The notes under the pieces: generated by a model
Database searches by the model: none
What the model saw: only the letters and a program-made list of their open reading frames with translations
What the model was told of the DNA's origin: nothing
Program-made: the position numbers and the translations under genes
Shown: positions 1,823 through 61,366 of the stretch, one piece after another
Position numbering within the stretch: position 1 is the stretch's first letter
Layout of the letters: every line of letters begins with the position of its first letter
From: a virus
Taxonomy: Duplodnaviria; Caudoviricetes
IMG/VR virus record: IMGVR_UViG_3300046170_000254
Coordinates: 1 to 63,438 of that record
Length of the DNA: 63,438 bases
Reading direction: 5' to 3' (one strand)

Positions 1823-1853
1823 TACAGACTTAGTACGTTACTATTTGGATAAT
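1823..1853 (+). promoter_or_regulatory. Putative early promoter, copy 1 (TACA-N8-ACG-N9-GGATAAT)
   Basis: TACAgacttagtACGttactatttGGATAAT. Confidence 0.65.
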
Positions 1854-1901
1854 GTAGTTAGGCGTTGATCGTATCGATACACGTTTTCGTGTATAGCAAA
1901 T

Positions 1902-1932
1902 TACAAGTTAAACACGAATCAATTTGGATAAT
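1902..1932 (+). promoter_or_regulatory. Putative early promoter, copy 2
   Basis: TACAagttaaacACGaatcaatttGGATAAT; ATG at 1958. Confidence 0.75.
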
Positions 1933-2118
1933 ATATATGTAACAAAAAATAATAAATATGAAAACTTTTATAACTTACAAAATTAATAATGATTTCTTTG
2001 AATTAGATTTTAATAATAATAAAGAAGAAGAGAAAGAAATGTTAAACTATATTAAAGATAATAATATAAAAGAATTTAAAAGATTAGAAAATAGTAAAGG
2101 TTATAGATTTAATGTTTT

Positions 2119-2149
2119 TACAAACTAAACACGACCTCAACTGGATAAT
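2119..2149 (+). promoter_or_regulatory. Putative early promoter, copy 3
   Basis: TACAaactaaacACGacctcaactGGATAAT. Confidence 0.75.
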
Positions 2150-2719
2150 ATATATGAACATTAAAACTAACAACATGAATAGAGAAGATCGAATAGAAGA
2201 ATTATATAACCAACTAATACAAGAACATTCAGAGTTACAATATGAATATCTTGATGACGAACTCCAAGATGTGATCATGGAAATGGTATACAAAAGATTA
2301 GATAACAAATAAAACAAACAACATGGAACTAACTAAACACGAACTCAACCTTATCTACAATTGCCTAGAAGATTGTGCCAACTCAGATAGTTGGGAACAT
2401 TACTCAGACATAGTATGGGAATTATCAATCAAAGTTAAAGAAATGGTTAACAATATTAAGTAAAATAAGTAAAACACACACATTCACACACTGGACTATA
2501 CCACCACACTTAAAATCATTAACAAATAAAACACACACTCTATGACTACTGAACAAGTAAACAAAATCAAAAAGAAAATAGCAAGACAAAACAAGCATAC
2601 TCAAGACCTTATGGCAAATTACATTAGACCAGTTAAAAGAGTAACAAGAGTAACATTTGCAAGGAAAGCACTCTGGGACAATATAGACACAACAAAAGAA
2701 TATTATTCTTACACTAGAC

Positions 2720-2750
2720 TACAAGCTTAATACGATGCAAATTGGATAAT
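2720..2750 (+). promoter_or_regulatory. Putative early promoter, copy 4
   Basis: TACAagcttaatACGatgcaaattGGATAAT. Confidence 0.75.
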
Positions 2751-3755
2751 ATAAATGAACATAAAAACAAACACAATGCAAAAAATAGTAATTGACTGGA
2801 ACATAACTGGAAGCTTAATGAACAACAAATACAACTTACATTTAACACTTACTGATGGTACACAAAAAACAATAACTGACACACTAAGTGAATTAACTAA
2901 AATAGTAAAAACATTATGATACCACAACTACACGAAATAAATGGCAAACTAGATATGCTACAAGATCTAAAAATACAAGGTCTAGGATTATCACTCGATC
3001 AACAAGAAGCGTTGCTTGATATACACCAACAACTAATAGACAGACGAATTGAATTAATAAAAGAAATTAAAAAACAATATATAACATGATAATAGTAAAC
3101 AAATACACAGGACGTGACGTCTCAAAAGAATTTGGTGCACTAATGGAAGGCATCATCACAAACGAAGAATTTGAATTAATAACAATGACACTAAAATGAT
3201 CACACAAGAACAAATAGAAGCTAAGCTAAAACAAATACAAGAGTTCGAAAAAGAACACGGTACAGATCACGGAATCACTTCTGTGAATGCAATGAAGAAG
3301 TATTGCCTTGATGCGAACTACAGAAAACGAGTTAAACAATTTAATAAAGCAAGTATAAACACAATCAAACATTATGCAAGATACGGATACTAAAAATGAA
3401 ATGCCTTGGGACTTTTGGAATTATGATATTAACCCAATACTAGGATACAAATTAGAAAAACCATCTTTAACATTTAGAGGTGCTAGAAACAAAAGTGAAT
3501 ACAACGAAGAAGACGATATAAAATTATGAAAACAAAAGACGAAGTACTACAACAAATATTTGACAATGACCCAATGGGAATATTAGATGAAGAATTTACA
3601 ACTAAAGATAAATTGTATATGCTACGTCAAACCATTGATGACCTTGTTGCGATCGGTCCAGACTATGCACACTTTATGAATGCACAAATTGCACACAAGA
3701 ATTTAAAGAAGATTAAGAAACTATTAGAATATATAGGCTAATTGCTATACACAAT

Positions 3756-3786
3756 TACAAACCTAACACGAATACAAACGGATAAT
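3756..3786 (+). promoter_or_regulatory. Putative early promoter, copy 5
   Basis: TACAaacctaacACGaatacaaacGGATAAT; ATG at 3815. Confidence 0.75.
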
Positions 3787-5002
3787 ATATAAGAACATTA
3801 AAACAAACACAATTATGAAAACATTTGACAGATACAAACAAAACTTAAAACAAGTCGGCAATGACATTTATTCTTATGATACACACGTTGCTGAAATAAA
3901 AGATGGTAAACTTCATTTGATGAATTGGCATGTACCCGGCGTTGGATCACACAGCGTTACAACGTCGAAGCATGTCAACTATGTAGCACAACAACTTAAT
4001 CTTGAAATAGCATGATAACTGAATGTAGCTACTGTAATGAACCGTTACACGAGGAAGAAATAGAATTTTATAACACACAAGTAGATGCAATACCACTTTG
4101 CACAAACTGCGGAATTAAATTATGGTAATATGAAAAACTGGATATTTTACGGAGAAAACGAAAATGGTGCACGAGTTGTACACTATATCAAACGATGCAA
4201 AAAGCCTGTATTAACAGCTGAACGCAAAAAAATGATGCAACACCTTGATAATTATGTTTATCAACGTGTAGGCTATATGACAGCCGATGCATGGAACAAA
4301 AGTAGTCAATATATAAAATTTAACTCACAACCAGAATGAACACAATAGTACAACAAATGGCCGATCACTGTATTGAAGTTATTGACCAATACATTGACAA
4401 CACAATACACTGGCAACTCGATGAAGAAGATATTGAAGCCGGCGACTTAAATGAATTAGAATTAAAAATAAAACAACAAATATTATTTACATTAATTAAA
4501 AAAGTAACAAAATGAACAACATTTACACAAAACTAGCAGAAGCTTTAAACATTTATGAATTCACTGAAGACTATACACCAAACGCTGCGTTGCAAATTAG
4601 CGAATATATGACTGCAGATAGCTATGACATACACGTTATGACTAACGATCCTTCGCTTTTAATGTGGGACACCGATGTGTACTATTATCAACCATCGTTC
4701 AATGATATTATCGATCGCATTAAAGACTTAGACGAAGATGCTATCGTATACGTAAGCGATCTTGACCAATACTTACCAGAGTATGAAGTTGAAAACTATC
4801 TTGAAGACCACTGGAAACAACTACAGGCTGAAAATGAAGTATAAAAATATATGGGAAAATTAATTATAACATACAGCGGAAAAAAAATTGAATACTTAAT
4901 TAATACACAGGTTGAAAATCATATATCTATGAAAGCTATTGAAGACATACTTAAATACTTTCCAAAAGATGCGCCTGTTGAATTTGAAGAATTATTTTAA
5001 AC

Positions 5003-5033
5003 TACAAAGTAAACACGAGTAGTAAAGGATAAT
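5003..5033 (+). promoter_or_regulatory. Putative early promoter, copy 6
   Basis: TACAaagtaaacACGagtagtaaaGGATAAT. Confidence 0.75.
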
Positions 5034-7922: not shown

Positions 7923-8551
7923 ACAGAAACATAGAGTACTTGCATCGTAGAAATATTATATATAGACGCGATCCTATAAACGATACTCCCACTGAAATAT
8001 TTAGTTGGGGTAAATTTTATGAGGAGGGTACCTATGAGTGTTATGAATTATTCAGAAGTAAAGCAAAAATAACAACTTATAAGTCTTTTAAATGGCACAT
8101 ATTAGTGCTTTGGCACTTAAACCCTAAGCTAGACGATAAACAATTTGAGGATTTAGTTTATTTTTTAGCTGATAAACAAAATGGATTTGTTACCTTTACA
8201 ATACCTGAGCATGTTATATACAATATTGCTTATGAAGTTTCAAAAGAAGATTTAGAAGAATCTCCTAAAAACAAAATAAGAAAAATAATATTTAAAGACA
8301 ATTGCGGATTAACAAGCACAGAGAAGTTAAAGATAGTAGGTACTTTAATGGGTAAAAAGAAAAAAGCTGAAGAGTCGGATATATATGAAGCAATGATAAT
8401 GCTACACGATAACTCTAAGAAAATCACAGTAAAAAGTTTATCTAAGATATTGAACGTATCTACGAGAACTATATACAGAAATATTACAAATGATTTAAAC
8501 AGAGAAAAAGCATTACTCAATGAAGAAATTCAACATTCCAAACTATGCTAG
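7916..8551 (+). CDS. C-terminal HTH DNA-binding protein, candidate replication initiator
   Basis: ITVKSLSKILNVSTRTIYRNI HTH; first gene of the replication module. Confidence 0.6.
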   Translation: MSHRNIEYLHRRNIIYRRDPINDTPTEIFSWGKFYEEGTYECYELFRSKAKITTYKSFKWHILVLWHLNPKLDDKQFEDLVYFLADKQNGFVTFTIPEHVIYNIAYEVSKEDLEESPKNKIRKIIFKDNCGLTSTEKLKIVGTLMGKKKKAEESDIYEAMIMLHDNSKKITVKSLSKILNVSTRTIYRNITNDLNREKALLNEEIQHSKLC

Positions 8552-9258
8552 GTTTAAAAATGATTTAAATGAAATTAATTTAGATTTATATAACGATAGA
8601 GATAAATTAATTGTAGAGAATATAAAATTAGTAGAGAACATAGCTAGATCATTTTCAACTATGCAGCAAGCATCGGGAGTATTAGATATAACAGATTTAA
8701 TACAAGAAGGTACAGTTGGTTTAATTGCAGCTGTAGATAAAATTGAATGGCAAACAATTAAGCTTTCAACCGATCCAGAAAGAACATTAAAATCTTTTTT
8801 AAGTAAAAGAATTAAAGGAGCAATAAGAAGAGCTATTGATATTAATAGAGGGAAATATTAGAATACCGGAGCATAAATTAAATGATATGCGTAAAAATTC
8901 TGAACAAGAAAAAAAGATGGTGGAAATATTTTTTAATAGTATTTTTCAAAGTATTGATAGCATCGAGCACCATACTAATATGAAGTATGATATTATTGAT
9001 CCAACAAAAGAATACAATATAGATATATTAAACAAATATTTATTAAGTATAATGGAAACGCATCTATCTATAAAAGAATATGATGTATTACGCATGAGTT
9101 ACGGTTTAGACTGTGATAAAATGCAGGCTAAAGAAATTGCAGAAAAATTAAAAATTGAGGGGACAGCTGCTTATGTTAGAATATCTCAAATAAAGCGCGA
9201 TGCTATTGACAAGCTAATAGAAAATGTTGACCCAGCTCAAGTGTCTGATTTACTGTAA
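8520..9258 (+). CDS. Sigma-70-family RNA polymerase sigma factor, split by an extra G near 8850
   Basis: Region 2: LIVENIKLVENIAR...DLIQEGTVGLIAAVDK; then NIRIPEH; region 4: LSIKEYDVLRMSYGL...AKEIAEKL...RISQIKRDAIDKL. Confidence 0.9.
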
Positions 9259-19172: not shown

Positions 19173-19317
19173 TGTCTTTAACTTTTTTTATAATACTTAT
19201 TGTTGTATATATTATTGCTAATGCTAAACTGCATGCCTGCAGAATTTCATTTGCATCTGACATACTAAGCCCGAAGGCAAATGCATTAGTAATTACTATT
19301 TTTAAATCTTGCATTTT
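19159..19317 (-). CDS. Holin-like small membrane protein
   Basis: MQDLKIVITNAFAFG..., two hydrophobic helices and a basic tail, next to the endolysin. Confidence 0.5.
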   Translation of the reverse strand, partial: KMQDLKIVITNAFAFGLSMSDANEILQACSLALAIIYTTISIIKKVKDNGKN

Positions 19318-19775
19318 TATATTATTATGTAGGTGGTTTTGCCGTTTATCCTTTGCGCTTTTAAGCATCTTTTTCTATTTTGATCTTCAGAAACATAGCT
19401 TACATGCACCCAGTTAGGATTTTTATCGGTACCAAATTCCCATATTAATTGATCAAAGCTAAGATTGTTTTTTATGTATTCAAACATCTCAGCGTTTGTT
19501 TTATGTCCATGCGTATCATCAATATCAATAGCTCTACCCTCACAGTGTTGTGATCTTGAACTTCCTCCAATCGCTTTGTTTAATTCAACACACCGATAAA
19601 AAGAATTAATTTTAATAGGCCCGCCGACCCACTCTCTTAAAGGTTCAAAAACATTGACAGCTATATTAACCATATTAGATTCTTCGTAGTCTCCTGGAGT
19701 ATTATCAATACCCTTCCTGGTTGCTGTATTAGATCTTGTTGCTTCTTTGTAAGATATATGATTAGATATTTTCAT
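19317..19775 (-). CDS. Endolysin, peptidase M15A family
   Basis: INSFYRC..LNKAIGGS.RSQHCEGRAID...WVHVSY. Confidence 0.9.
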   Translation of the reverse strand: MKISNHISYKEATRSNTATRKGIDNTPGDYEESNMVNIAVNVFEPLREWVGGPIKINSFYRCVELNKAIGGSSRSQHCEGRAIDIDDTHGHKTNAEMFEYIKNNLSFDQLIWEFGTDKNPNWVHVSYVSEDQNRKRCLKAQRINGKTTYIII

Positions 19776-19781
19776 TTAATT

Positions 19782-22700
19782 TTAATTTCTTTTAATTTTT
19801 GGTCTTTGTGGCCTGATACTTTTTGATTTTTTCTTTTTTCTTAATGGTGTTTTAGATTTTTTAGTTTGACTTTCAATCATACCTAAATCCCACTCAGTCC
19901 ATCCAAGCGACAATGCTATTGATTGCCAAAGTTCTGTTTCAGGTTGCATAGCTGTATAAACATTGTCAAGTTTCTGTACAACTCTATCAGCAGGTACATT
20001 TGTTCCGGCAGATATTACTTTTCCTGCAGCTAAGAGAGCTGGATTATCTAAACTAAATCCTTCAGTAAAAACTTTTTCTCTTGATTCTTTATATTTAAAT
20101 GTATTTCCTGCAGATATTAATTTTCTTAATTTAGAATTTATAGGAGGTGATATTGAGGTTGCTGCTATTGCAGCTTTTGTATAATCAGGTCTATCCTTTT
20201 TAGATTGATTGATTATTTCAAGTATAACGTTTTTAACTGTTGCTGCAGCTGCGCCATAAACTCCTGTTCCTCTTAATAAAGAATCTGCTGAACTATTAGC
20301 TATTCTATAATATTTTTCCTTAGCATCAACTTCTTCTTCATCATCAAATAATAATGCAAACAATGCAGATTGCAACGCGGAGAATATAATATTTTGTATT
20401 ACACCATAATAAGCAATCTTACTGATATTTGTTTTCCAATCGCCACGTCCATTAACTAAGTCAAGAGCAGCCTTCTTTTGTAATCTAGCGTATTGCATAG
20501 GCGTATTTGCAAAAGCAAGAACAACGCGCCCTAAACTACCTGCTTGTTCCATAGAAACTCTATCTGGTCTTGACGACTGCTGTGTTTCTTCTGCAATCTC
20601 TTGGAAATCAGTAAATGCCTCTTGCTCAGCTTCTTTTTGTTCTAAACCTTCTTTCTTATATTTTTTAATTCTATTACGATAAAATGTAGCACCCCCAGAA
20701 GCAATAGCAAATGAATCAGCAATTTGAGTAGGAGTAAAACCAATTTTTAATAAAGCATTGAATAATGCTCTAGGCGATGTTTCATTTCCTTTAGTAGCTT
20801 TAGCAATTTCATCCGCACTAATATCAGTTTGCAGCCCACTTCGTCTTTGCTTTAAAAAATCAGAATTAAATAGTTTTACAAAATCTTTTCTATACTGTCC
20901 AAAGTTTGCAAGAGCAGCTGCTGCGCTAATAGGGTTGTTATCTGAAAAGTTTATAAAGTTAACTGTAGATAATGTTTGGAGTACTGCGGATCTAGCGTTA
21001 AAGAACATGATACTTCCTACAGAATTGTTTACCCAATCCATCCAGGCTCTTTCCTGTTTACTCTGGCCCATTTTCCTATTAACACCTTTTTCCATTCTAT
21101 AAAGAATGTTTTCAAGTGCTTCAACATATTTTTCGCCGTATAAGCCTCGTAACTTTGTAATGTTTTTTTCAGAAAATATTATATCTTTATTTTCTTTCCA
21201 TTCAGATAAAAATTCAGATCGCTTTGCTCCATTGACATACCCAATTAAATCACTTGTTATATCACCATCTATCCAGTTAGCTTCTGGGGAGGGGTAACCT
21301 TCTGGGTTTAATCCCATTAATGTATCAGCAAAAGATTTAAATTTATCATTTTTCTTTATTGCTCTTATTGCATTGTTGACTTCCCCTTTATTAATACCAG
21401 GGTATATCAAAACCTTGTTTTTGCCACATATACATTCTAAGTGACTGTTCATTTGTAAAACCAGATTCATTTTCTTTTTTCAATCCACCAGGTACATCTT
21501 TTTTAGCTCGCTGTTTCAAAACAGACCACTCGCGCATAGCTCTTTGTTTTTCAGCTTCATAAGCTTGAATACCTCTTGAGAATGGTCGTAATAAATTTTC
21601 TCGATACCAATCCATTTGTTGGTTACCTTTTTCTTTACCAGCAAGCGTTGTGTATAGCAAACCTACAAAATCATCTGCTGAATAGGGAACAAAAATTGCC
21701 CCTTTACCCTTACCCTTAGCCATCACTCTAGCTTTAGCAGGTGAAAATCTTTCAGTCCATTTAACTCCAGTAGATTCTTCTAATATTTTATTAAACTCTT
21801 TGTTTAATGATTTAGAAAATTTTTGTACAAAAATTGAATTAATATTTTTTTCAATAAAAGCATTATTATTAGAATAACTTATATTAACTATTTTGTTTAA
21901 ATCAATATTAGAAGCAATATATCTATCTACCCATTTTTTCCAATTTTTGGGCATTACATGTGCATACCCCGCTTCATTAATTTTTTTAGAGTCAGCAACC
22001 GATATTGCTATTAAAACATAATCTTTTTTAGATTTTTTAAGATAATCTAAAAAGCCCTTTTTATTTTTATTTTTAGCAAAGCGTTTAGCAGCATTTAATA
22101 CTCTTTTCCATTGAATATGATTTTGAACAGCATGTTCATATTCAAAAGTTCTTGTTATTGGAATTTTAATTTCTTTTCCGTCTTTTGCATAAATGGTTTT
22201 AAATTTTTTATTTCCATCTTTATCTACAGCAAAAGTTTTTAAAGCTGTTGGATCATAACCTAAAAAAATAGCTCCTAATCTGTGCCAATGAGAAACGTCA
22301 TTACTAGAGGTTTGTAAAGTTGATTCAAGAAAATCAAACATATCAGGATTTTTCTCTAATATATTATAATACTTTTCCCACATGCTGTCATATACTCTTG
22401 AATATGTATTTTGTAATTTAAATATATTTCCGTTTTCTATATTATTTTTAATTTCAATAGCATTCCGACCAAATTTTTCAGCTGGATTACCAAACGACTC
22501 GCCAGGTTTTAATATATTAAAATTAGTTTTTGCTTTATAAGATATTATTGATTTTCTAAGATCTTTTATTTTTTCTCTTAATATTTGTTTTTCTTTTGGC
22601 TTTAACTTGTCAAATCCTTTAAGCTCATTTTCACTAACTACATAAGAAGGTCTTTGTGACCCTAGTTGAGTTTTAATATCACCAATTTCGTCTTGTAAAA

Positions 22701-25700
22701 TTTTTGAACCTTCTAATTTAGCGTTGCTCCATTCCGCCCACCCCTCAGGAGTTAGTAATTTTTTAGCAGTAACATTAAATTTTGAATTAGAATTTGAAAA
22801 TTTTATTTGTGGTGGATTTACCACTTCTTCAACTGGAAAAGCTTTGGGGTCATAAGCTATAAATATTGTTTCTGAACCATCTGGTATATCAGCTGGATAG
22901 TCATATGTTTCCCATCCTAATTCATTTGCAAACTTTTTATTTAAAGAATTATATAATCTTTTTCTACTTTCTTCTTTTGCGGTAAATGTTATAGAATTTA
23001 ATTTTTCTTTTTTAATTAAATCTATAGTTGCATTAGCTACAGTTCCAAATACTTTAAACTGATTAGTACGACCTTTTAACGCGTATTCTGTTAAACCCAC
23101 TCTTTTTGTGGTTGCAGATGCAAAAGATAATTCCCATGATTTTGGATCATTATTAATAGCTCCGTCCTCAATACCTTCAGTCTGCTCAAATATATCGTAG
23201 TTGTAACCTGAAGGATCTTTAAATGCATTTATTTCATAATCTATTTCACCTACTTTAAATTTATATAGCTTTGCGCTTTCTTCTAATGGGTTTAATTGGT
23301 TTTGTTCCCATTTACCATCAGCCTTAGTTGTGAGACTAAATTTAATATTAGCAGGGTCAGCCTCGTAAATTATATTATCAGATATTAATGAATATTTATC
23401 GCTTAATTTATCTAAGCTTGTTTTATTAAGTATTTTTGCTAATTCTTGAGATTCTAAATTGTATTCCGCTTTAGCATCGTTTATAATACTTTTAGAAAAT
23501 TTAAAGCCTTCCGCTCTATCAACTTGCTTAGCTATTAATGATTTAAAGTTTTCAGGTAATACTTCACCTGTAATACCAGCTATGTCTTGGTATTTTGAAA
23601 TAACATCAGGGTCATTTAAAACTTCCATAGTAGCATCAAAAGCAATTTCTTCTGCCATGCCCTCCACTACGGCCGTCTTTCTTGCTCCTTTAGTTGATGA
23701 ACCTACTTCGCTGCCTAAAAAGTATTTAATCCATTCTGCCTTGCTAATTTTCTTTTTAGTAAATACTTTATTACCTTCAGCTGTCCGTTCTCTAAGTTGT
23801 TTACCATTTTCATCTAATACAGGCTGCGCAAAATCAGAAAATCTTCTGTTAATAAGGCTCTGAGGCATTTTATTATAAATAGCTTCAAAATTATCACGTA
23901 AAAAATTTTCAAAATTAGCTCTAGTTCCTACAAACTTTGATAATGGTTTTTTAAGTTCTGTTCTAAATCTTTTTTGTAATTCAAACCTAAACTTAGGATC
24001 CTGAGGATTGGGTAGTTTTGTGCCAAAAGTTTTTACTACAGCATCTTTAACTTTGGTAACAAGGTCTTCAGATAAACCAATTTCTTTACGTAAACTTTTT
24101 ATTTCATCAGCTACCGCAACTTCTTTTTCTTCTATGATTTCTTCAGTAGTTACAGTATCAGTAACACCTTTAGCTTCTGTTACATCTAATTCAAAATCAG
24201 TTTTAAGAATGCGGTTAGCCGCTTCAATAGCTCTACGACTTAAAAATGTATTTATATAACCGGCTAATGGGGCACCTTTTGCTTTTTCAGGTGTGTATTC
24301 CATTATCATGTCTAGAATACCACGCTTACCAGTCTCTATTTCATCCTTAAGAAGCTCATATTCAAACCCAGGAACATCTCTATACTTATTTACTAGCTTG
24401 TCTACAATTGGCTTAAACTGGTCAATTATATCCATTGCACCAGCAGTTCCTTGTTCTTTGTATATACGTTGAACTTCATCAGATGCTTTTTGTGATCTTG
24501 AAAACTTTTCAACTTCTTTTTGTGAGGTTTTTGTAACATCAACAAGTTTGCCTTCAATACCTTTTCGAGCTTGTTCTAGTACTTTTTGCCTAATACCACC
24601 TTTAGAAATATCTTTGTTATAATCTTTTATGAAATTATATACGTCTCTACCGGTATCAAATTTTATTTTTTTAAATCCTAAATCTTGTAAAACTTTTCTT
24701 ATTGAATCTCCTATGCGCGTAAATATATTTTCATTATACTTAATATCTCCAGTAGCAGTTGCGTCAGAAAATAATGTTAAAATTTCTTCTGCTTGAACAC
24801 TTTCTGGATTCTTAGAATATAATTCAACTCTTCTTCTAAAATTTGAGTCTGCAATTTCATTTAAATTTAATTTAGAAATTTCTTCCCCTAAAGCTCTGCC
24901 TAAATTAATAGCTGTTTCTGGTTTTTCTTTTAGTGTTTTAAACAATAACCCATGCAGCAGCTCATGAGAAGCAACATTTACAGCGTCGGTATTTTTTGCT
25001 ATTTCTTTATTTATAAAAATTTGTTTTCCATCTCCAGAAATAAAACCATCAGACTCAACAGCTTCTTTTATTATATTTTCAGAAAAATTGTTTTTAATTA
25101 AGTACTCTTCTAAAGCTTTTTTAGTTTCAAAAGATTGAAAATCTATGCCTAATTGCTCGGCTTGTTTTTTAGAAATTTCAGCTGTTTTTTCAAATTGTTG
25201 TTCTTTAGCTAAAGAAATAATTTTATTATTTTCTTCGGTAAGTTTTTTAATTTCATCGTTAGCTAACTGAATAGCAGAATCCGGCCCTTTAATAGACTTT
25301 CTTTTATTTATAATATCAATATTTTTAGCATAATCCATTAACTGCTCTTTATTCATAGCGTTAATATTTAATGAATTTGCTTTTTTAATTTGTATTATTT
25401 TTTCAGTTTCTTTATTAATTTCTTCTCGAATAATATTAGCCGCCTCCCCGTCTGCTTTTTGTAAATCTAAACTTAAATTAGATATTTTTGCCCCTGCAGT
25501 CTTCATTTGATTTTGTTGAGCTTCAGGGGTAAGTAAAAATTCTGCTCTATTTCTAGCAGCAGTTGACGCTCCACCAATTTCAGCAATAGTGTTTATAGAG
25601 CCTCCCATTAAACCACCAATAATAGCTCCGTCCATTACTCTATAAAAAGCATCTTCTGGTATATCTTTACCTAAAGTTATAGCGTCAACTATCATATTAG

Positions 25701-26724
25701 CCCCCTCAGTTGCTCCTTCAGATAATGATTCTTTAAAAATGCCTAAACCAAACCTTTTTCCAGCCGCTCCTAAACCTTCTTTTAATATTTTAGCAGCTTC
25801 CTGAGTTGAACCCCTACCTATCAAACCTTTCGCTTTTCCAATTAAGCCCATGGTCGTTCTTTCAAATAAAGCTTCTGTAGCCCCCGTTCCTGCGGCGTTT
25901 AAAGCTAGTAATGCTAAAGACTCTTCTGGATTATTTTTAAATTCTTCATCAAATTTATTGCCAGCTACACTAGACCCAAAAACAGCTAAACCTCCTGCAC
26001 CTGTAAAAGCCATAGCTACTGAAGGTAACGATTGCAACGCGCCTCCTATAGCTAATTCCGCTGCTTCTGCATAATTATTATTTTCAATAGCTTTAGTAAC
26101 AGAAGTGTTTTCTGTTTTTCTAATGTGCTCATTTATATCTGATAATATGTTATCATATTGGCCGGTAGATAAATATGTTGAGCCCGGAACCCCTTGTGCT
26201 AAAGCAGATTTTAAACCTATTTTTTCTTCATTAGATAATGGATTTCCTAAAACATCCGCAACCCCCGCTGTTGTAGTTAATACAACATCTTCAGCAAATG
26301 CTTGTGTACCTCTTAAGAAATCAGTAATTCCATAAACAGTTTTAGCTGCTAAAGATTCTGCTATAGATGGATCTTTTTCTTCAATTTTTTTAACTTGTAA
26401 TAGTTCTTGTTTTATTTCACCTGTTTTTTGAAACTCTTCAAAAGCAGGGCGTTGAGCAATAGTAAACTCGCCTTGTTCAAAACTACTTTTTATTTTTTGT
26501 AAATCCGATGAAATATCTTCCGATAGTAATTCCGTAGCGGTTGGTTGTATTTCGGGTGTTACATTTTCCTCCACAGGCACACCCTGGTTTTCTTCCTTTG
26601 GAGGAGTTATCTTTCCCGGCTCTTCCGCACTTACTTCTATAGCATCAGGATTGTCTGTTAAAAATTGTTGTACAATATTATCTGGTATATCGTAAATAGT
26701 ATTATTCGATTCAAACTTAGGCAT
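19782..26724 (-). CDS. Giant (~2,310 aa) ejection/internal virion polyvalent protein with a zincin motif, a sigma-like module and others; one extra C near 21400
   Basis: ORFs 21391..26724 and 19782..21470 join as ...QGFDIPGINKGEV on deleting one base; HELLH at aa 587-591; last and largest gene of the podoviral ejection trio. Confidence 0.8.
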
Positions 26725-33023: not shown

Positions 33024-36000
33024 TTAATTAGTAAAACTGGTTATGTTGCCTAAACCTTGTATAGAAAACTCTTTAGTATCAAGATTATTATCGGTGTTTG
33101 CAATACCTTTTATGTTGTTAAACCACTTTCCTTCTTTGTTTATAAAGGTAGTTACTTTTCCAGACTGTTGGTCTGTTTCAATAGACTCCGCTATCCATCC
33201 AGAAGTTCCTTCGTAATTTATTGTTTTAAAACTTTTTACAGTTGATGGGTCTTGGTTATAATTGAAATTTACAGTAGAATTATTTTGAGTGCCGTAAAAA
33301 TTATTATAAGAACTTGCGTTACTGTAATGTTTATATAATTCACCGTTTTTCATTGTATAATAACATCCGTTAATATATGTACCTGATTCAGGAACAAAAC
33401 TTAATCTAGATGTCCATCCGTCAATACCTTCTTTGAAAGAAATAGATTCTTCTTCAGTAAGCTCATTAAATTTATCTCTAAAAAAATCTGCCATACCATA
33501 ATTAGAAATAACTGTTAAACCATCAGCTGATAACCTTAATACTGCATTTCTAGCTTTGTCTGTAAAATATACTCGGTATCCATATTCAGCAAAAGATTCG
33601 GGATTTGTAGATATACCGTATTCTCCGCTAAATGTTATTGCTGTATCCAAAACATTGGTTGTAGCAGTTAAATTTATATTTCCATCAGCATTAAAAAGAG
33701 CATCTTTATTAGATAATATTTTTAATATTTTATCTTCGCATAAAGCAATTAAATCCGTATTCCTAGAATGTAATTTTTGTATGCTACCATATTCAGAGTT
33801 AAGATCTTTTGTAATAGCCTCTCCCGTATTAAACTGGTTTATATCATTAACACCATTTCTGGAATTGAACAAGCCACTAGAAAATATAAGACCGTACTTA
33901 TTATGTTTTTGTTTATAACCATTTTCAACAGTAGTAGAAACTCTTACTTGGTTATCTATAGTTGCTTCGTTAAAGTCATCTCTTATTCTATCTGATTCAA
34001 CACCATTTCCAAAATCAAAACAATTAAACCATTTTAATGTTTTAGTTTGGTTATATTCATGGATGTCATAAGAGTCTTCTGTTTCGTAATATACGTCAAG
34101 AAGATTATCAGAGGGAATTGTTTCAAAAACAGCATTGCTCCATGTTCCTGTATACGCAGCAGTTAAGTTTGTTGCCGTTGCTATTCCACTTGTGTCTTTT
34201 TTAATCTTTATAAAAAAGTAACCATTTAAAGTTTCAGAAGAAGTGATGTTATCTGGTTTACTATTTGAAATATCCTGTACTTTATATTTTAATGAAGGGT
34301 CTGATAAAGGAGCGGTTGTATCTGCTTTTTTCTTTAAAATTATATAGTCTTCTTCTTGTATTTTATTTATTTCATAGCTAGGTATAGCTACCCATAAAAA
34401 ATTAGCATTTTCATCATCATCAAAAGCTTTGTATACAATAACATTGTAGTATTCTTTAGATTGTTCTTTAATGTAATATTTAAATTTTCTTATTCTATTA
34501 TTAAAAAAAACTTCTGATGGTAAATTACTTAATGATACTTTGAATTCATTTCCGCTGGGTCTAGATGGAGTAGCGGTAAGAAATCTAACTTGATCGTAAT
34601 CAATTTTTATTTCACCTGAATCATTAGAAACAATAGGTGTTTGTCTGCCATATTCATCTTCAAAAATAACACCAAATTGATACGTTCTACCTGTTTTTAT
34701 AGATTTTGAAAGATGATTAGTTCTGCGCTCAGTAGAAATATTAAATGTTGGATTATATTGTATATAATTACCATTGCGATCATTAGTTATATCTAATCCA
34801 TCTTTATAGTTTCCAAATATAACTCTATTAGCACTTATTTCTTGCCCTTTTGCTCTATAAGGTACATTATCGTACTGCCTAAATAACTGATTGTTAGGTA
34901 AAACAGAGTATATACTTTCACTGTTTATTTTAATTTTACCAATTCCAGTAGCATAATTTTCAAACTCTTCTTTTCTTAATGTTTTATAAACATATAAATT
35001 AGTATTATTTGATTCTTTGTATACTATGTCTATAGAATATAAATCCGCAGGCTTTGTATCAATACCTATAAGCTCTATAGCACGAATAGTGTTTTCCATA
35101 GAAGTATTATAGCCTTGCTCGGAATCATATACAAAAGCACCAAATGGTTCAAAAATAGGTGGAGTGAATGGAGAAATAACTGATACTTGGTTATTTTTAA
35201 AACGCCATCTGTAAGCAAATCTTACAAACTTATCGTTGAATAATATATCACCCTTTTTTATTGTACCAGTAAAAGATATAGGAGGGTAACCATCTGATAA
35301 AATATATTCAGCCGTAACAGTCAGGCCACTTATAGAAACAAATTTAAATTTTTTTGCTCCTGTATCAAATCCTGCTGCAACAAAAAACTCTTCCCCGGCT
35401 TTAAGATTAGGGTCAACAGAAACGGTCATTGTAGTTGAGTCCCCAGGATTTAAACCTGTTACATTTATAGACGCAGTAATATCTACTCCCGACGATTGCA
35501 CTGCAAAACCGTAAGTACTTATTGAAACAAAAGGAGCTGAAGCTGGTTTCTTTCGTATAAGAGTTATGTCTGATTCTACTATAGGTCTGTCTGCCGCAAT
35601 AAAATCATCATATATATTTGTTGTAGTAGTAAAATTAATTGATTTAGATTTAAATAACTCAATATCAATGTTTTTTGGTTCAGAATTATTATCTGTCCAT
35701 AATAAATAACCTTCTACAACGTTTATAGCTGTTATTTGCGTGTTTGAAAAATTTGTTATAAGTTTGGTAGTATCAACTAAAACAGGAGAAACTACTCCGG
35801 TAACAACGTCATATTCCGCTATGGCATCAATTGTTGTCCCGTAGATAAACCAATATAATTTATCATTTTGTGTATCAGAAATACTTCCAATACAAGTTGC
35901 GCCTGGTATATTGATATTACTTATTTTAGCATTACCCAATATATTGTGTATGCTTCCAGCATCTCCATTTTCGGCAACACCCACCTGAATATTTAAAGCA

Positions 36001-36086
36001 TCTTTGTACTCGCCTGCTGGCAATACTCGCTCATCCGCGTCTTTATTCATTTTCCCCTTAAGGAAGTTTGCTTTAATTTCCGGCAT
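33024..36086 (-). CDS. Tail nozzle/stabilisation protein (tail tubular B-like)
   Basis: FLKGKMNKD.DER..P.GEY.DALN, FAYRW, NGVES.RIRDDFN, YGSIQKL, YGISTNPES, NKEGKWFN. Confidence 0.8.
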   Translation of the reverse strand: MPEIKANFLKGKMNKDADERVLPAGEYKDALNIQVGVAENGDAGSIHNILGNAKISNINIPGATCIGSISDTQNDKLYWFIYGTTIDAIAEYDVVTGVVSPVLVDTTKLITNFSNTQITAINVVEGYLLWTDNNSEPKNIDIELFKSKSINFTTTTNIYDDFIAADRPIVESDITLIRKKPASAPFVSISTYGFAVQSSGVDITASINVTGLNPGDSTTMTVSVDPNLKAGEEFFVAAGFDTGAKKFKFVSISGLTVTAEYILSDGYPPISFTGTIKKGDILFNDKFVRFAYRWRFKNNQVSVISPFTPPIFEPFGAFVYDSEQGYNTSMENTIRAIELIGIDTKPADLYSIDIVYKESNNTNLYVYKTLRKEEFENYATGIGKIKINSESIYSVLPNNQLFRQYDNVPYRAKGQEISANRVIFGNYKDGLDITNDRNGNYIQYNPTFNISTERRTNHLSKSIKTGRTYQFGVIFEDEYGRQTPIVSNDSGEIKIDYDQVRFLTATPSRPSGNEFKVSLSNLPSEVFFNNRIRKFKYYIKEQSKEYYNVIVYKAFDDDENANFLWVAIPSYEINKIQEEDYIILKKKADTTAPLSDPSLKYKVQDISNSKPDNITSSETLNGYFFIKIKKDTSGIATATNLTAAYTGTWSNAVFETIPSDNLLDVYYETEDSYDIHEYNQTKTLKWFNCFDFGNGVESDRIRDDFNEATIDNQVRVSTTVENGYKQKHNKYGLIFSSGLFNSRNGVNDINQFNTGEAITKDLNSEYGSIQKLHSRNTDLIALCEDKILKILSNKDALFNADGNINLTATTNVLDTAITFSGEYGISTNPESFAEYGYRVYFTDKARNAVLRLSADGLTVISNYGMADFFRDKFNELTEEESISFKEGIDGWTSRLSFVPESGTYINGCYYTMKNGELYKHYSNASSYNNFYGTQNNSTVNFNYNQDPSTVKSFKTINYEGTSGWIAESIETDQQSGKVTTFINKEGKWFNNIKGIANTDNNLDTKEFSIQGLGNITSFTN

Positions 36087-59569: not shown

Positions 59570-59820
59570 TCAACAATTATAACATCCTGTTGTTTAATTA
59601 CTGTGTAACTTTTACCCTCAAAAACTAGATCGTGCCCAGCGTGCCTATCGTAGTATATAATATCTTCAGGGTTTATGCACTCGGTTTTTTCACCGCAGTT
59701 AACAACTTTTCCTTTTAAATACCGGTTTTCGCTTTTATTATCTTGCATGATAAAACCATAATCGGTTTTAATCTCTTCTTTGATCTTAGTTATGATTATA
59801 TAATTATTTACTGCTTTCAT
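59566..59820 (-). CDS. groES: Co-chaperonin GroES
   Basis: MKAVNNYIII...GKVVNCG...D.I.Y......Y.VIK..DVI; adjacent to groEL. Confidence 0.85.
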   Translation of the reverse strand: MKAVNNYIIITKIKEEIKTDYGFIMQDNKSENRYLKGKVVNCGEKTECINPEDIIYYDRHAGHDLVFEGKSYTVIKQQDVIIVE

Positions 59821-61366
59821 TTAACCTAACATTTGAAATTATACAATCAGCTGAAATTATAGTTAATGCAACAGAAACCGCATTAATAAGGGCTGTTTTA
59901 GTGACCAGTACAGGATCTATGATCCCTTCTTTTACAAGATTACACATATCCCCGGTAATAACATTTATACCCTGCCCTTTATCAATATACGGTCCGTATT
60001 TAATTCCAGCGTTTTCCAGTATTTTTTTATAAGGTGCTCTTATAGCTCTATATAGTATATTTTCTGTAGATTTTCCTTCGGCAAGTTCATCAGCTGCATT
60101 ATGTAATGCAACGCCTGCCCCTGGCACAATGCCTTCTTTTAAGGCAGCTTTAACAGCGTGTATTGCGTCCTCTACTCTATCTTTTTTCTCTTTAAGCTCT
60201 ACTTTACTATTTGCACCTACTTTTATAACACCAACAGCCCCTGATAACATAGCGAGCCTTTGTTCTAGCTTTGTTTTTAGAAAACCGTTCTTTTCGTTTT
60301 TAATTTTATTCCTTACAGTAGTTATTCTTTCTTTTACCTCTTCAGGCATAGAGTCTACTGTAATTATAGTGCTATTTTGATTTGTTACAGCTTTTGTTGC
60401 AAAACCTAAACAACTAGGATCAATTAAATCTAAATCATCTCCTAATTCTTCATTTATGACAGTAGCTCCTGTTATTGTAGCTAAGTCTTCAAGCGTATCC
60501 TGTTTTGTAGCGCCAAACCCAGGTAAATCAACAATATTTACTTTGATATTACCTTTTACCTTGTTCATTACTAAAGCAGACATAGGCTGTTGCTCTAATT
60601 CAGCTACAATAAGTAAACTTTGTTGACTTTTAATAACATGCTCTAATACATTTTGTATTTTACGCACATTAGGTACTGGACTAGATAAAATAAGTATTGC
60701 TGCATTTTCTAATTCAGCTTTATTCTTTTCTTTATCGGTTACTAAGTGTTGTGATTTTAAACCTGAATCAAATTCAACACCATCAATAATTTCAACGTGT
60801 GTTTCATCTGTATCTGATTCTTCCATCAGCACTATGCCATCTTTACCTACTTTTTTATATGCTTGTGCTATAATACTACCTAATTCAGCATCATTGTTAA
60901 CTGATATCGTAGCTACCGACTCTAGCATTTTATTTGTTACTTTGGTTTTAGAGCTATTTAGGTTTTTTAACACTTTTTCTTTAGCTTTTTCAACACCACT
61001 CTTAATATCTCTAACATTTGCGTTTTCAACCGCTAAACATTCTTTAAGAATAGCATGAGCAAGTACAGTAGAGGTTGTTGTTCCGTCACCTGCTTCTTTA
61101 ACTGTTTTCTGTGCAGCTTCTTTTATAAGAGTTGCCCCGATGTTTTCTACAGGATCAAAAAGTACAACACTATTTGCTACCGTAACACCATCTTTAGTTA
61201 CAACAGGTTTTCCCATTGCATCCTCATATATAACGCATTTTCCGGATGCCCCTAACGTTGAACTTACTGCTTCGGAAAGTTTTTCAATTCCGTTTACAAT
61301 TTTAGACTTAGCGTCGCTGCCAAAGTCAAGATTCTTTACAATCTCACTTGGATTATTATATTCCAT
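59804..61366 (-). CDS. groEL: Chaperonin GroEL (group I)
   Basis: VTKDGVTVA, AGDGTTT, IKVGA, RVEDA, EGIVPGAG, GIIDP..VTK.AL.NA.SVA. Confidence 0.97.
   Translation of the reverse strand: MEYNNPSEIVKNLDFGSDAKSKIVNGIEKLSEAVSSTLGASGKCVIYEDAMGKPVVTKDGVTVANSVVLFDPVENIGATLIKEAAQKTVKEAGDGTTTSTVLAHAILKECLAVENANVRDIKSGVEKAKEKVLKNLNSSKTKVTNKMLESVATISVNNDAELGSIIAQAYKKVGKDGIVLMEESDTDETHVEIIDGVEFDSGLKSQHLVTDKEKNKAELENAAILILSSPVPNVRKIQNVLEHVIKSQQSLLIVAELEQQPMSALVMNKVKGNIKVNIVDLPGFGATKQDTLEDLATITGATVINEELGDDLDLIDPSCLGFATKAVTNQNSTIITVDSMPEEVKERITTVRNKIKNEKNGFLKTKLEQRLAMLSGAVGVIKVGANSKVELKEKKDRVEDAIHAVKAALKEGIVPGAGVALHNAADELAEGKSTENILYRAIRAPYKKILENAGIKYGPYIDKGQGINVITGDMCNLVKEGIIDPVLVTKTALINAVSVALTIISADCIISNVRLNESSK

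Follow-up and report, generated by a model that had tools for sequence, protein, structure and literature searches.

The DNA analysed here is a virus record of the Caudoviricetes (IMG/VR record IMGVR_UViG_3300046170_000254; 63,438 bases, complete or nearly so at 99%), and this whole stretch is referred to as the window. On its minus strand, at the end of the virion module, lies a giant gene whose first and larger reading frame, designated P0001, carries between two copies of the tripeptide KFS a module that begins with a domain resembling domain 2 of the sigma-70 family (sigma2) and continues, beyond an acidic linker, into a basic helical subdomain. The module and its flanks are laid out as follows, with residues numbered in amino acids (aa) of P0001.

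21391..26724, minus strand: giant gene, first and larger reading frame (P0001), 1777 aa
24499..24507, minus strand: KFS junction motif no. 1, aa 740–742, directly upstream of the sigma-like module
24175..24498, minus strand: sigma-70-family domain-2-like subdomain, aa 743–850 of P0001, five helices
24103..24174, minus strand: acidic linker, predicted to be disordered, aa 851–874, net charge −6
23503..24102, minus strand: basic helical partner subdomain with a small beta-hairpin, aa 875–1074, pI 9.45
23494..23502, minus strand: KFS junction motif no. 2, reading FKFSK, aa 1075–1077, directly downstream of the module

A first-pass annotation of the window had placed the module at 23503..24498, and this span translates into aa 743–1074, exactly the residues enclosed by KFS no. 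1 (aa 740) and KFS no. 2 (aa 1075). The sigma-like peptide quoted there for 24202..24441 (aa 762–841) is likewise present in P0001, at aa 763–840, and its position was right within one codon. In the structure model of the whole module, which has a predicted local distance difference test score (pLDDT) of 82.5, two helical subdomains at module residues 1–105 and 132–332 are separated by the disordered acidic linker, with pLDDT <50 at residues 106–131 and mostly 85–93 in the partner subdomain. Within the sigma-like subdomain, the region-2.2-like helices occupy aa 789–809 and the region-2.3/2.4-like helix aa 820–840. Because this first subdomain is the better conserved of the two, tblastn of related loci often matched it alone, and it was therefore aligned separately. 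Three alignments were used: A1, the whole module (24 sequences); A2, aa 743–850 (36 sequences); and A3, the free-standing sigma family of the phage clade.

When the A2 profile was compared with the PDB sequences, 13 of the 21 matches at E≤10 were sigma factors, all in a single register that pairs module residues ~10–89 with regions 2.1–2.4; the best was sigma-K (8vjl_B, E 0.0033), followed by a sigma fragment (8b3z_A, E 0.017) and then by FliA, RpoS and RpoH. The wider A1 profile returned sigma factors in 6 of 13 matches. AlphaFold modelled A2 at a pLDDT of 91.4 and a predicted template-modelling score (pTM) of 0.83, and in a Foldseek search of this model against the PDB, sigma domain 2 accounted for six of the seven best matches, with template-modelling (TM) scores of 0.48–0.59, other proteins reaching at most 0.34. 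These six matches comprise a SigA–RpoC model, the sigmaS holoenzyme, two structures of sigmaE region 2 bound to −10 DNA (TMt 0.59; nearest sigmaE entries 4lup and 5or5), a Thermus sigma fragment on −10 DNA, and S. aureus SigA. Aligned by hhalign with the free sigma family A3, A2 gave a probability of 75% and P 2.5e-5 over 70 columns (P 3.6e-5 with a longer template), while the controls yielded P 0.048 for the reversed template and 0.088 for the best of 20 column shuffles. A search of a protein atlas by language-model features found Sigma70_r2 clusters in 23 of the 30 named matches, with a top score of 0.95, and at relaxed thresholds the hidden Markov model (HMM) of A2 matched, again in the same register, the free sigma open reading frames (ORFs) of three relatives (E 0.04–0.29).

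The sigma-like subdomain has a mean column identity of 57% with 7 invariant positions, while the neighbouring sequence of the same phages has drifted to 30–40% identity. Its most conserved part is the loop and last helix corresponding to regions 2.3/2.4, which contain the invariant residues G75, L78, Y81, R89 and I91. With sigma domain 2 as generally defined (regions 1.2 and 2.1–2.4; PF04542) the subdomain shares the order of the helices, a G-x-x-G turn in the region-2.2-like helix, an [FY]-x-P-x-x-G loop followed by a conserved Tyr, basic residues in the last helix, and a predicted docking on the clamp helices of the beta′ subunit that is described below. It differs from sigma factors, which are free proteins of 20–70 kDa, in falling below Pfam detection, in being embedded as one module in a protein of some 2,313 aa, and in being paired with a basic domain of no known family in place of regions 3 and 4. 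The phage also encodes a free sigma, a remote homologue by the hhalign comparison above that has an F-L-S-x-R stretch of the last helix in common with the module; this free protein differs in possessing region 4, in its length of ~250 aa, in its location in the early/middle block and in being recognised by Pfam.

It is very improbable that a small helical bundle has come to resemble sigma by chance. Such a view could appeal to the tests other than the PDB profile match (E 0.0033), none of which reached a conventional database-wide threshold, and to the Foldseek E-values of the A2 model, every one of which was ≥0.5, so that the weight of the structural comparison rests on ranking and TM score; yet five methods led to the same family in the same register, and the reversed and shuffled hhalign controls failed to do so. 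The resemblance to region 2 noticed in the first-pass annotation thus goes beyond chance, since the PDB profile, AlphaFold with Foldseek, hhalign with its controls, the atlas look-up and the predicted beta′ complex all agree, and the fold check proposed there for the module returned both a sigma2 fold and a sequence signal. We regard it as established, with high confidence, that aa 743–850 are a true and highly diverged sigma-70-family domain 2 that the Pfam model misses.

The module is one sigma domain and not a whole sigma factor. Sigma70_r4 matched in the window only at 9064..9216, inside the free sigma, and the 24 module sequences contained no region 4 or helix-turn-helix family; the earlier statement that no canonical region 4 could be seen therefore holds, and the partner subdomain is indeed unlike the free sigma (hhalign probability 0.2%, with a template covering 197 of about 250 aa). 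The basic partner always follows the sigma-like subdomain, as the downstream regions of all 77 loci examined formed one similarity cluster. For aa 875–1074, neither a family nor a fold was obtained from the PDB profile, Pfam, the atlas, Foldseek and BFVD searches of the two-domain model, or hhalign against the free sigma. In BFVD, the two-domain model matched one uncharacterised viral protein (E 3.5e-3), and a cyanophage sigma came third (E 0.36). An RNA polymerase, which the first-pass annotation had not noticed either, is not detectable in the window: a search with PF00623 found none and was positive in 14 of 14 control genomes, a search with PF00940 found none but was also silent in its control, making it a weak negative, and the D.D.D motif is not present in either frame of the giant gene. 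The idea of a hidden polymerase was rejected on the same grounds, with no D.D.D motif and no Pfam polymerase domain.

A complex was next predicted between A2 and residues 220–350 of beta′ from Flavobacterium johnsoniae, a stand-in for a host that was itself deduced. The complex scored 0.66, compared with 0.00 for the best of three controls; 58 of 80 solved complexes and 2 of 110 mismatched pairs attain this mark, counts that apply only approximately here because the complex was built on our own alignment. Three runs shared at least 94% of the contacts, and the pLDDT of the partner was at least 80. In the predicted interface, module residues 44–66, which form the region-2.2-like helices, lie on beta′ residues 288–319, reproducing the geometry of region 2.2 on the clamp helices. 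The multimer model suggested in the first-pass annotation thus outscored its controls, as a prediction. Since sigma–beta′ complexes have already been solved, this outcome may derive from the memory of the model, and it is taken to indicate likeness and not binding.

The genes around the giant gene place it in the virion module. The terminase, portal and virion structural proteins are encoded upstream on the same strand, together with a protein that has the crAss-phage 'muzzle' C-terminal domain, and an M15 peptidase lies downstream, so that the position at the end of a virion module, on which the first-pass annotation had relied, was borne out. In its portal protein the phage is closest, among cultured phages, to the Flavobacterium 'elemo' phages, Maribacter phage Panino, Cellulophaga phi38:1 and Tenacibaculum phages, all of which infect Flavobacteriaceae, and the source is a marine podovirus of a type infecting Flavobacteriia. 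At the same gene position, Cellulophaga phage phi38:1 encodes gp101, a protein of 1691 aa annotated as 'structural protein', and the closest record encodes a 3859-aa protein with two HExxH motifs. None of these nearest cultured phages has the sigma-like domain. Judged from gene position and from the anatomy described next, the giant protein is probably a virion component that enters the cell with the DNA.

The neighbouring genes also provided some separate observations. The muzzle-type protein, a virion protein of 1020 aa at 33024..36086 on the minus strand, matches PF25729 with E 9.3e-11, and this domain ties the podovirus tail to those of crAss-like phages, whose virion RNA polymerase genes occupy the place of the giant gene. 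Directly after the giant gene, the segment 18516..19775 (minus strand) encodes the M15 peptidase (19317..19775, E 2.5e-18) and two small ORFs, which are probably a lysis cassette marking the end of the virion module.

The remaining features of the giant gene are listed here.

19782..21470, minus strand: second reading frame of the giant gene, 562 aa, overlapping the end of P0001
25960..26055, minus strand: Gly/Ala-rich hydrophobic segment 1, aa 224–255 (Kyte-Doolittle scan)
25582..25638, minus strand: Gly/Ala-rich hydrophobic segment 2, aa 363–381 (Kyte-Doolittle scan)
24952..24966, minus strand: HELLH, an HExxH zincin-type motif, aa 587–591
23335..23343, 22795..22803 and 21814..21822, minus strand: further KFS copies, aa 1128, 1308 and 1635

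Homologues of the giant protein are single proteins of ~2000–2600 aa, and the second ORF aligns to their C-termini from its residue 24 onward. As they are uninterrupted at this point, the frame in the window must be broken by one base near 21397..21402, and the product would be about 2,313 aa long if intact. Frame breaks in both the giant gene and the free sigma gene of one assembly suggest indel errors rather than biology, with real frameshifts as the other possibility. Conservation along P0001 is high at aa ~200–1075, low at 1100–1600 and high again from ~1635 to the end. The N-terminus is acidic; aa 201–420, around the hydrophobic segments, contain 29.5% Gly+Ala. The HExxH motif is retained in at least 85 of 94 aligned homologues (ten commonest classes), and its sole family support in Pfam is a weak match of the region to DUF3267, 'putative zincin peptidase' (E 0.2). 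The most conserved part is the C-terminal block of ~680 aa (19782..21822, minus strand; aa ~1635 to the end), with long invariant runs across 94 sequences. No family was found for this block in PHROGs, Pfam, PDB sequences or NCBIfam, and it could be an encapsidation or an enzymatic domain.

All five KFS tripeptides (aa 740, 1075, 1128, 1308 and 1635) stand at the edges of conservation blocks. Their number in P0001 exceeds the expected 0.6, a count of five being reached in 9 of 20,000 shuffles, and KFS occurs only 3 times in the 15,489 aa of the other ORFs in the window. At the C-terminal junction of the module, FKFSK is found in 61 homologues and a close variant in most others among the 15 commonest classes. 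Taken as sequence patterns, the KFS-type motifs at the module junctions and the conserved HExxH would fit processing of the protein. The idea that KFS is a prohead-protease site common to head proteins was ruled out, as no KFS occurs in the capsid, portal and scaffold-position ORFs. As separate observations, the middle of the giant protein differs among relatives as if modules had been swapped between KFS junctions, and this variable part (22900..23150, minus strand; aa ~1193–1275) gave weak matches to DUF6934 (E 0.006) and phrog_16075 (E 1e-4) in the window.

In sum, an acidic N-terminus, Gly/Ala segments, HExxH, FKFSK junctions and a conserved C-terminal block give the giant protein the build of an ejected 'polyvalent' protein. 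The explanation that we favour, at somewhat better than even confidence, is that aa 743–1074 are a sigma2-derived core-docking module of a probably packaged and ejected giant protein, which seizes the host RNA polymerase at the entering genome. Under this explanation the giant protein would be packaged and would exit the capsid together with the DNA; the sigma2-like domain, perhaps released at the FKFSK-type junctions, would bind the core of the host RNA polymerase through its region-2.2-like helix, as the modelled complex predicts; and the polymerase would be captured at the incoming genome ahead of any phage gene expression. The basic partner domain would perhaps provide DNA contacts, replacing the missing region 4. 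The analysis establishes homology, fold, conservation, architecture and gene position; binding to beta′ is a prediction, and packaging, ejection, cleavage and the effect of the capture, be it initiation, tethering or blocking, are inferences.

Several observations weigh against this explanation. Besides the Foldseek E-values given above, Pfam Sigma70_r2 was silent at E≤10 in the window protein, the module, the 24 family members and a six-frame scan, and in the same scan it matched the free sigma at 8607..8837; searches of the whole giant protein against Pfam, PHROGs, NCBIfam and, as a single sequence, the PDB also gave no sigma match and nothing strong. Foldseek of the two-domain model against the PDB found nothing significant, with a best E of 0.44 and one SigA chain at rank 26. 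In an ungapped alignment to E. coli sigma70, the polar core-binding residues Q406, E407 and N409 would be replaced by E, T and K, and the melting tryptophan W433 by T/K. The module has no region 3 or region 4, and the predicted complex rests on the beta′ of a stand-in host and on a textbook pair. With regard to the carrier, the similarity between the giant protein and the phi38:1 structural protein was marginal (22% over 250 aa, E 0.003 in a two-sequence database). Neither the protein nor the domain is carried by any cultured phage among 50,697 records searched by megablast and tblastn, and tblastn of the 108-aa domain against these records at E≤10 gave a single, irrelevant match (E 6). Finally, the giant gene is a late gene, and unless its product is packaged, that product would be present only late in infection.

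In one alternative, the protein would not be delivered with the DNA at all, and the domain would either work late, for example in tying polymerase or DNA to assembly, or be a helical scaffold that has lost any link to transcription. This alternative, which we consider quite improbable, gains from the late block in which the giant gene lies, from the failure of Pfam to recognise the domain and from the marginal similarity to a known virion protein. It is opposed by the location of the gene between tail and lysis genes on the same strand, by the position shared with a protein annotated as structural in phi38:1, and by the strong conservation of the region-2.2-like face, which passes the beta′ complex test. 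The size, hydrophobic segments and HExxH of the protein, moreover, resemble those of ejected polyvalent proteins as these are described in the main text of PMC5512222.

A further alternative retains the docking and dispenses with promoter recognition: the domain would act as a sigma decoy that occupies the beta′ clamp helices and keeps host sigmas off, thereby shutting host transcription or reserving the polymerase. In the predicted complex it is the face of the clamp helices used by sigma that is contacted, region 4 is missing, and the melting tryptophan is not kept by our alignment; sigma-like mimic domains such as PhyR exist, and the early motif and the domain do not strictly co-vary, as detailed below. 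PhyR itself, a response regulator of cells, has an anti-sigma factor as its binding partner and has no virion context, and the module would share with PhyR-type domains the reuse of a sigma-derived domain for protein binding and not for promoter recognition. However, the most conserved part of the domain is its 2.3/2.4-like DNA-binding part, which a pure clamp-helix blocker would not need; an outright block of the host core would be self-defeating, unless reversible, for a phage with no detectable polymerase; and a virion protein reaches each cell in a few copies only. We consider the decoy unlikely.

Two further elements, on the plus strand, are the following.

1823..5033, plus strand: early motif TACA-N8-ACG-N9-GGATAAT, six copies, starting at 1823, 1902, 2119, 2720, 3756 and 5003
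8520..9258, plus strand: free-standing phage sigma with regions 2 and 4, in two overlapping ORFs, 8520..8861 (region 2) and 8836..9258 (region 4)

The early motif was found six times in the window against 0.02 expected, and it is conserved in many related contigs. Across relatives, its upstream half is longer than first noted, roughly TACAAACTAAATACGA, and clade variants occur, with TGATAAT in place of GGATAAT in 13 copies (G073), TACG (G054), and no ACG (G065). The sigma at 8520..9258 that the first-pass annotation had listed is real, as Pfam recognised its region 2 (6.9e-7) and region 4 (1e-3). Of 23 relatives with a free sigma, 21 encode it in a single ORF of 243–274 aa.

Co-variation of the domain with the early motif was assessed from both directions. 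The motif-bearing set consisted of 27 records hand-picked from 80 listed, namely 23 contigs with ≥3 copies and four with 2, the other two-copy and all one-copy contigs being left out. The domain (E≤0.001) was present in 11 of these 27, and in 8 of the 12 that are ≥90% complete. A more sensitive local search added one borderline case, G024 (E 0.0065), and detected no domain in the giant ORFs of G013, G016 and G025. The domain-bearing set consisted of 50 records hand-picked from the 90 loci L002–L091, leaving out same-contig duplicates and many short contigs. The motif (≤1 mismatch) was found in 22 of these 50, including 11 of the 14 that are ≥90% complete; these 11 had 4–13 copies each, compared with 0–1 for a reversed-pattern control. 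As for the three complete records lacking it, G065 has the variant mentioned above, and G039 and G068 gave nothing at ≤2 mismatches. Of 24 complete records, 23 have the free sigma, and the four with the motif and no domain are all among them. Co-variation, which had been named as a test of the earlier idea, was thus not strict: 3–4 of 12 complete motif-bearing records are without the domain, and 2–3 of 14 complete domain-bearing records are without the motif. The domain and the early motif usually travel together, as related genomes would anyway, and neither requires the other. The free sigma is an equally good candidate for the reader of the early motif.

These data bear directly on the model put forward in the first-pass annotation, in which cleavage at the KFS junctions after ejection releases the module as an injected sigma that reads TACA-N8-ACG-N9-GGATAAT together with the host core, and the free sigma at 8520..9258 drives later genes. 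The sigma2 homology and the predicted core binding apply to this model equally. The motif itself is real, all six copies lying on the plus strand at 1.8–5 kb, and it is conserved across the clade (11 of 14 complete domain-bearing records). In relatives, G035 and G040 for example, the free sigma is encoded within the block of motif copies or immediately behind it, so the free sigma cannot be the first to read that block, and a pre-made or host factor is favoured for the earliest transcription. The motif presumably does not fit the Bacteroidota TTTG / TAnnTTTG consensus. A precedent exists in T4 gp55, a sigma2-only protein able to direct transcription from a −10-like element. Against the model, the domain was present in only 8 of 12 complete motif-bearing records, with G024 borderline and G013, G016 and G025 negative; 3 of 14 complete domain-bearing records lack the motif at ≤1 mismatch; the free sigma occurs in nearly all complete records, among them all four with the motif and no domain; shared ancestry alone would account for most of the co-occurrence; and there is no region 4 for the long upstream half of the motif. 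The injected-sigma idea thus stood in part, with a sigma2 domain, predicted docking on the core, no detectable phage polymerase and a position in the virion module, and fell short in part, with one domain only and no strict co-variation with the motif. As a whole, the model is unlikely, and the two-sigma cascade contained in it is a conjecture. A more specific version, in which the clade injects a minimal sigma, the HExxH peptidase cuts the FKFSK junctions, and the released ~38-kDa module of sigma2 and basic domain loads the host core on the early promoters at time zero, we likewise hold to be unlikely.

Among known systems, T4 gp55 offers a precedent for a phage sigma that lacks region 4 and still brings the host core to a −10-like element. 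T4 gp55 consists essentially of a sigma2-like part and differs from the module as a free minimal late sigma that is made during infection and needs gp33 and the sliding clamp. Known ways of starting transcription at phage entry are promoters read by the host holoenzyme or a whole virion RNA polymerase, as in N4, crAss-like and phiKZ-like phages. A sigma-derived polymerase-docking module, as part of a protein that probably accompanies the DNA, would represent an intermediate strategy, in which the phage brings only the part that grips or steers the polymerase; an injected minimal sigma, if true, would give phages a third route into early transcription, next to host-sigma promoters and virion RNA polymerases. 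Together with its DNA, the phage may in this way bring into the cell a means of seizing host transcription. The module also offers a compact and testable case for a sigma2 domain working without regions 3 and 4.

Virion RNA polymerases, namely N4 gp50 with its relatives and those of crAss-like phages, are ejected with the DNA to start early transcription (PMC13434306, PMC12633501 and PMC5512222). Like the giant protein, they are giant late-gene products encoded at the end of the virion module, and the N4-type ones also carry a zincin-like HExxH; the crAss 'muzzle' domain protein of the window phage is a further likeness to crAss-like phages. They differ in that no catalytic domain or motif was found here, and the module would instead borrow the host core. 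In their main text, Iyer et al. 2017 (PMC5512222) describe the polyvalent proteins of phages and conjugative elements, which are of very large size and composed of many modules around a zincin-like metallopeptidase as hub, and propose that they are delivered with the DNA, processed, and able to 'jump-start transcription'. As a giant modular protein with HExxH, the product of the giant gene fits this concept, and it differs in that none of the domains named in that main text was detected here by Pfam. The main text of that survey has 0 occurrences of sigma, whether spelled out or as the Greek letter, and the sigma2 module would be a new addition to the domain repertoire of polyvalent ejected proteins as given there (PMC5512222). 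No report on a sigma domain in a virion or ejection protein was found within the limited collection of literature searched. In the proteomics table of phage SU10, a sigma factor with one peptide is listed among the 'middle gene products', beside the DNA polymerase, and this entry is not evidence of packaging.

The module is widespread in metagenomic sequences. Among the candidates scored, it had 788 homologues at E≤0.001, mostly in proteins of 2000–2600 aa, and 192 IMG/VR loci were collected. At E≤0.001, the domain was found in 341 clusters (50% identity) in a search of 1.84 billion representatives; among the 150 cluster matches listed, it lay in mid-protein, mostly in proteins of 1000–3366 aa, and the short ones are likely fragments. 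The 341 clusters and 192 loci make the domain abundant in marine metagenomes. Flavobacteriia, the bacteria that phages of this type infect, are major degraders of algal blooms. More diverged versions of the domain occur in other giant proteins of the clade (G017, G022, G026 and probably G024). As a side observation, in G013 (L213–L216), which is without a giant-embedded domain, an extended HMM of the domain gave a borderline match (E 0.012) to a separate minus-strand ORF of 203 aa that is not the free sigma, and this ORF may be a stand-alone relative of the sigma-like domain. The window phage further encodes a chaperonin of the GroEL type at 59804..61366 on the minus strand (phrog_5725, E 6.9e-135).

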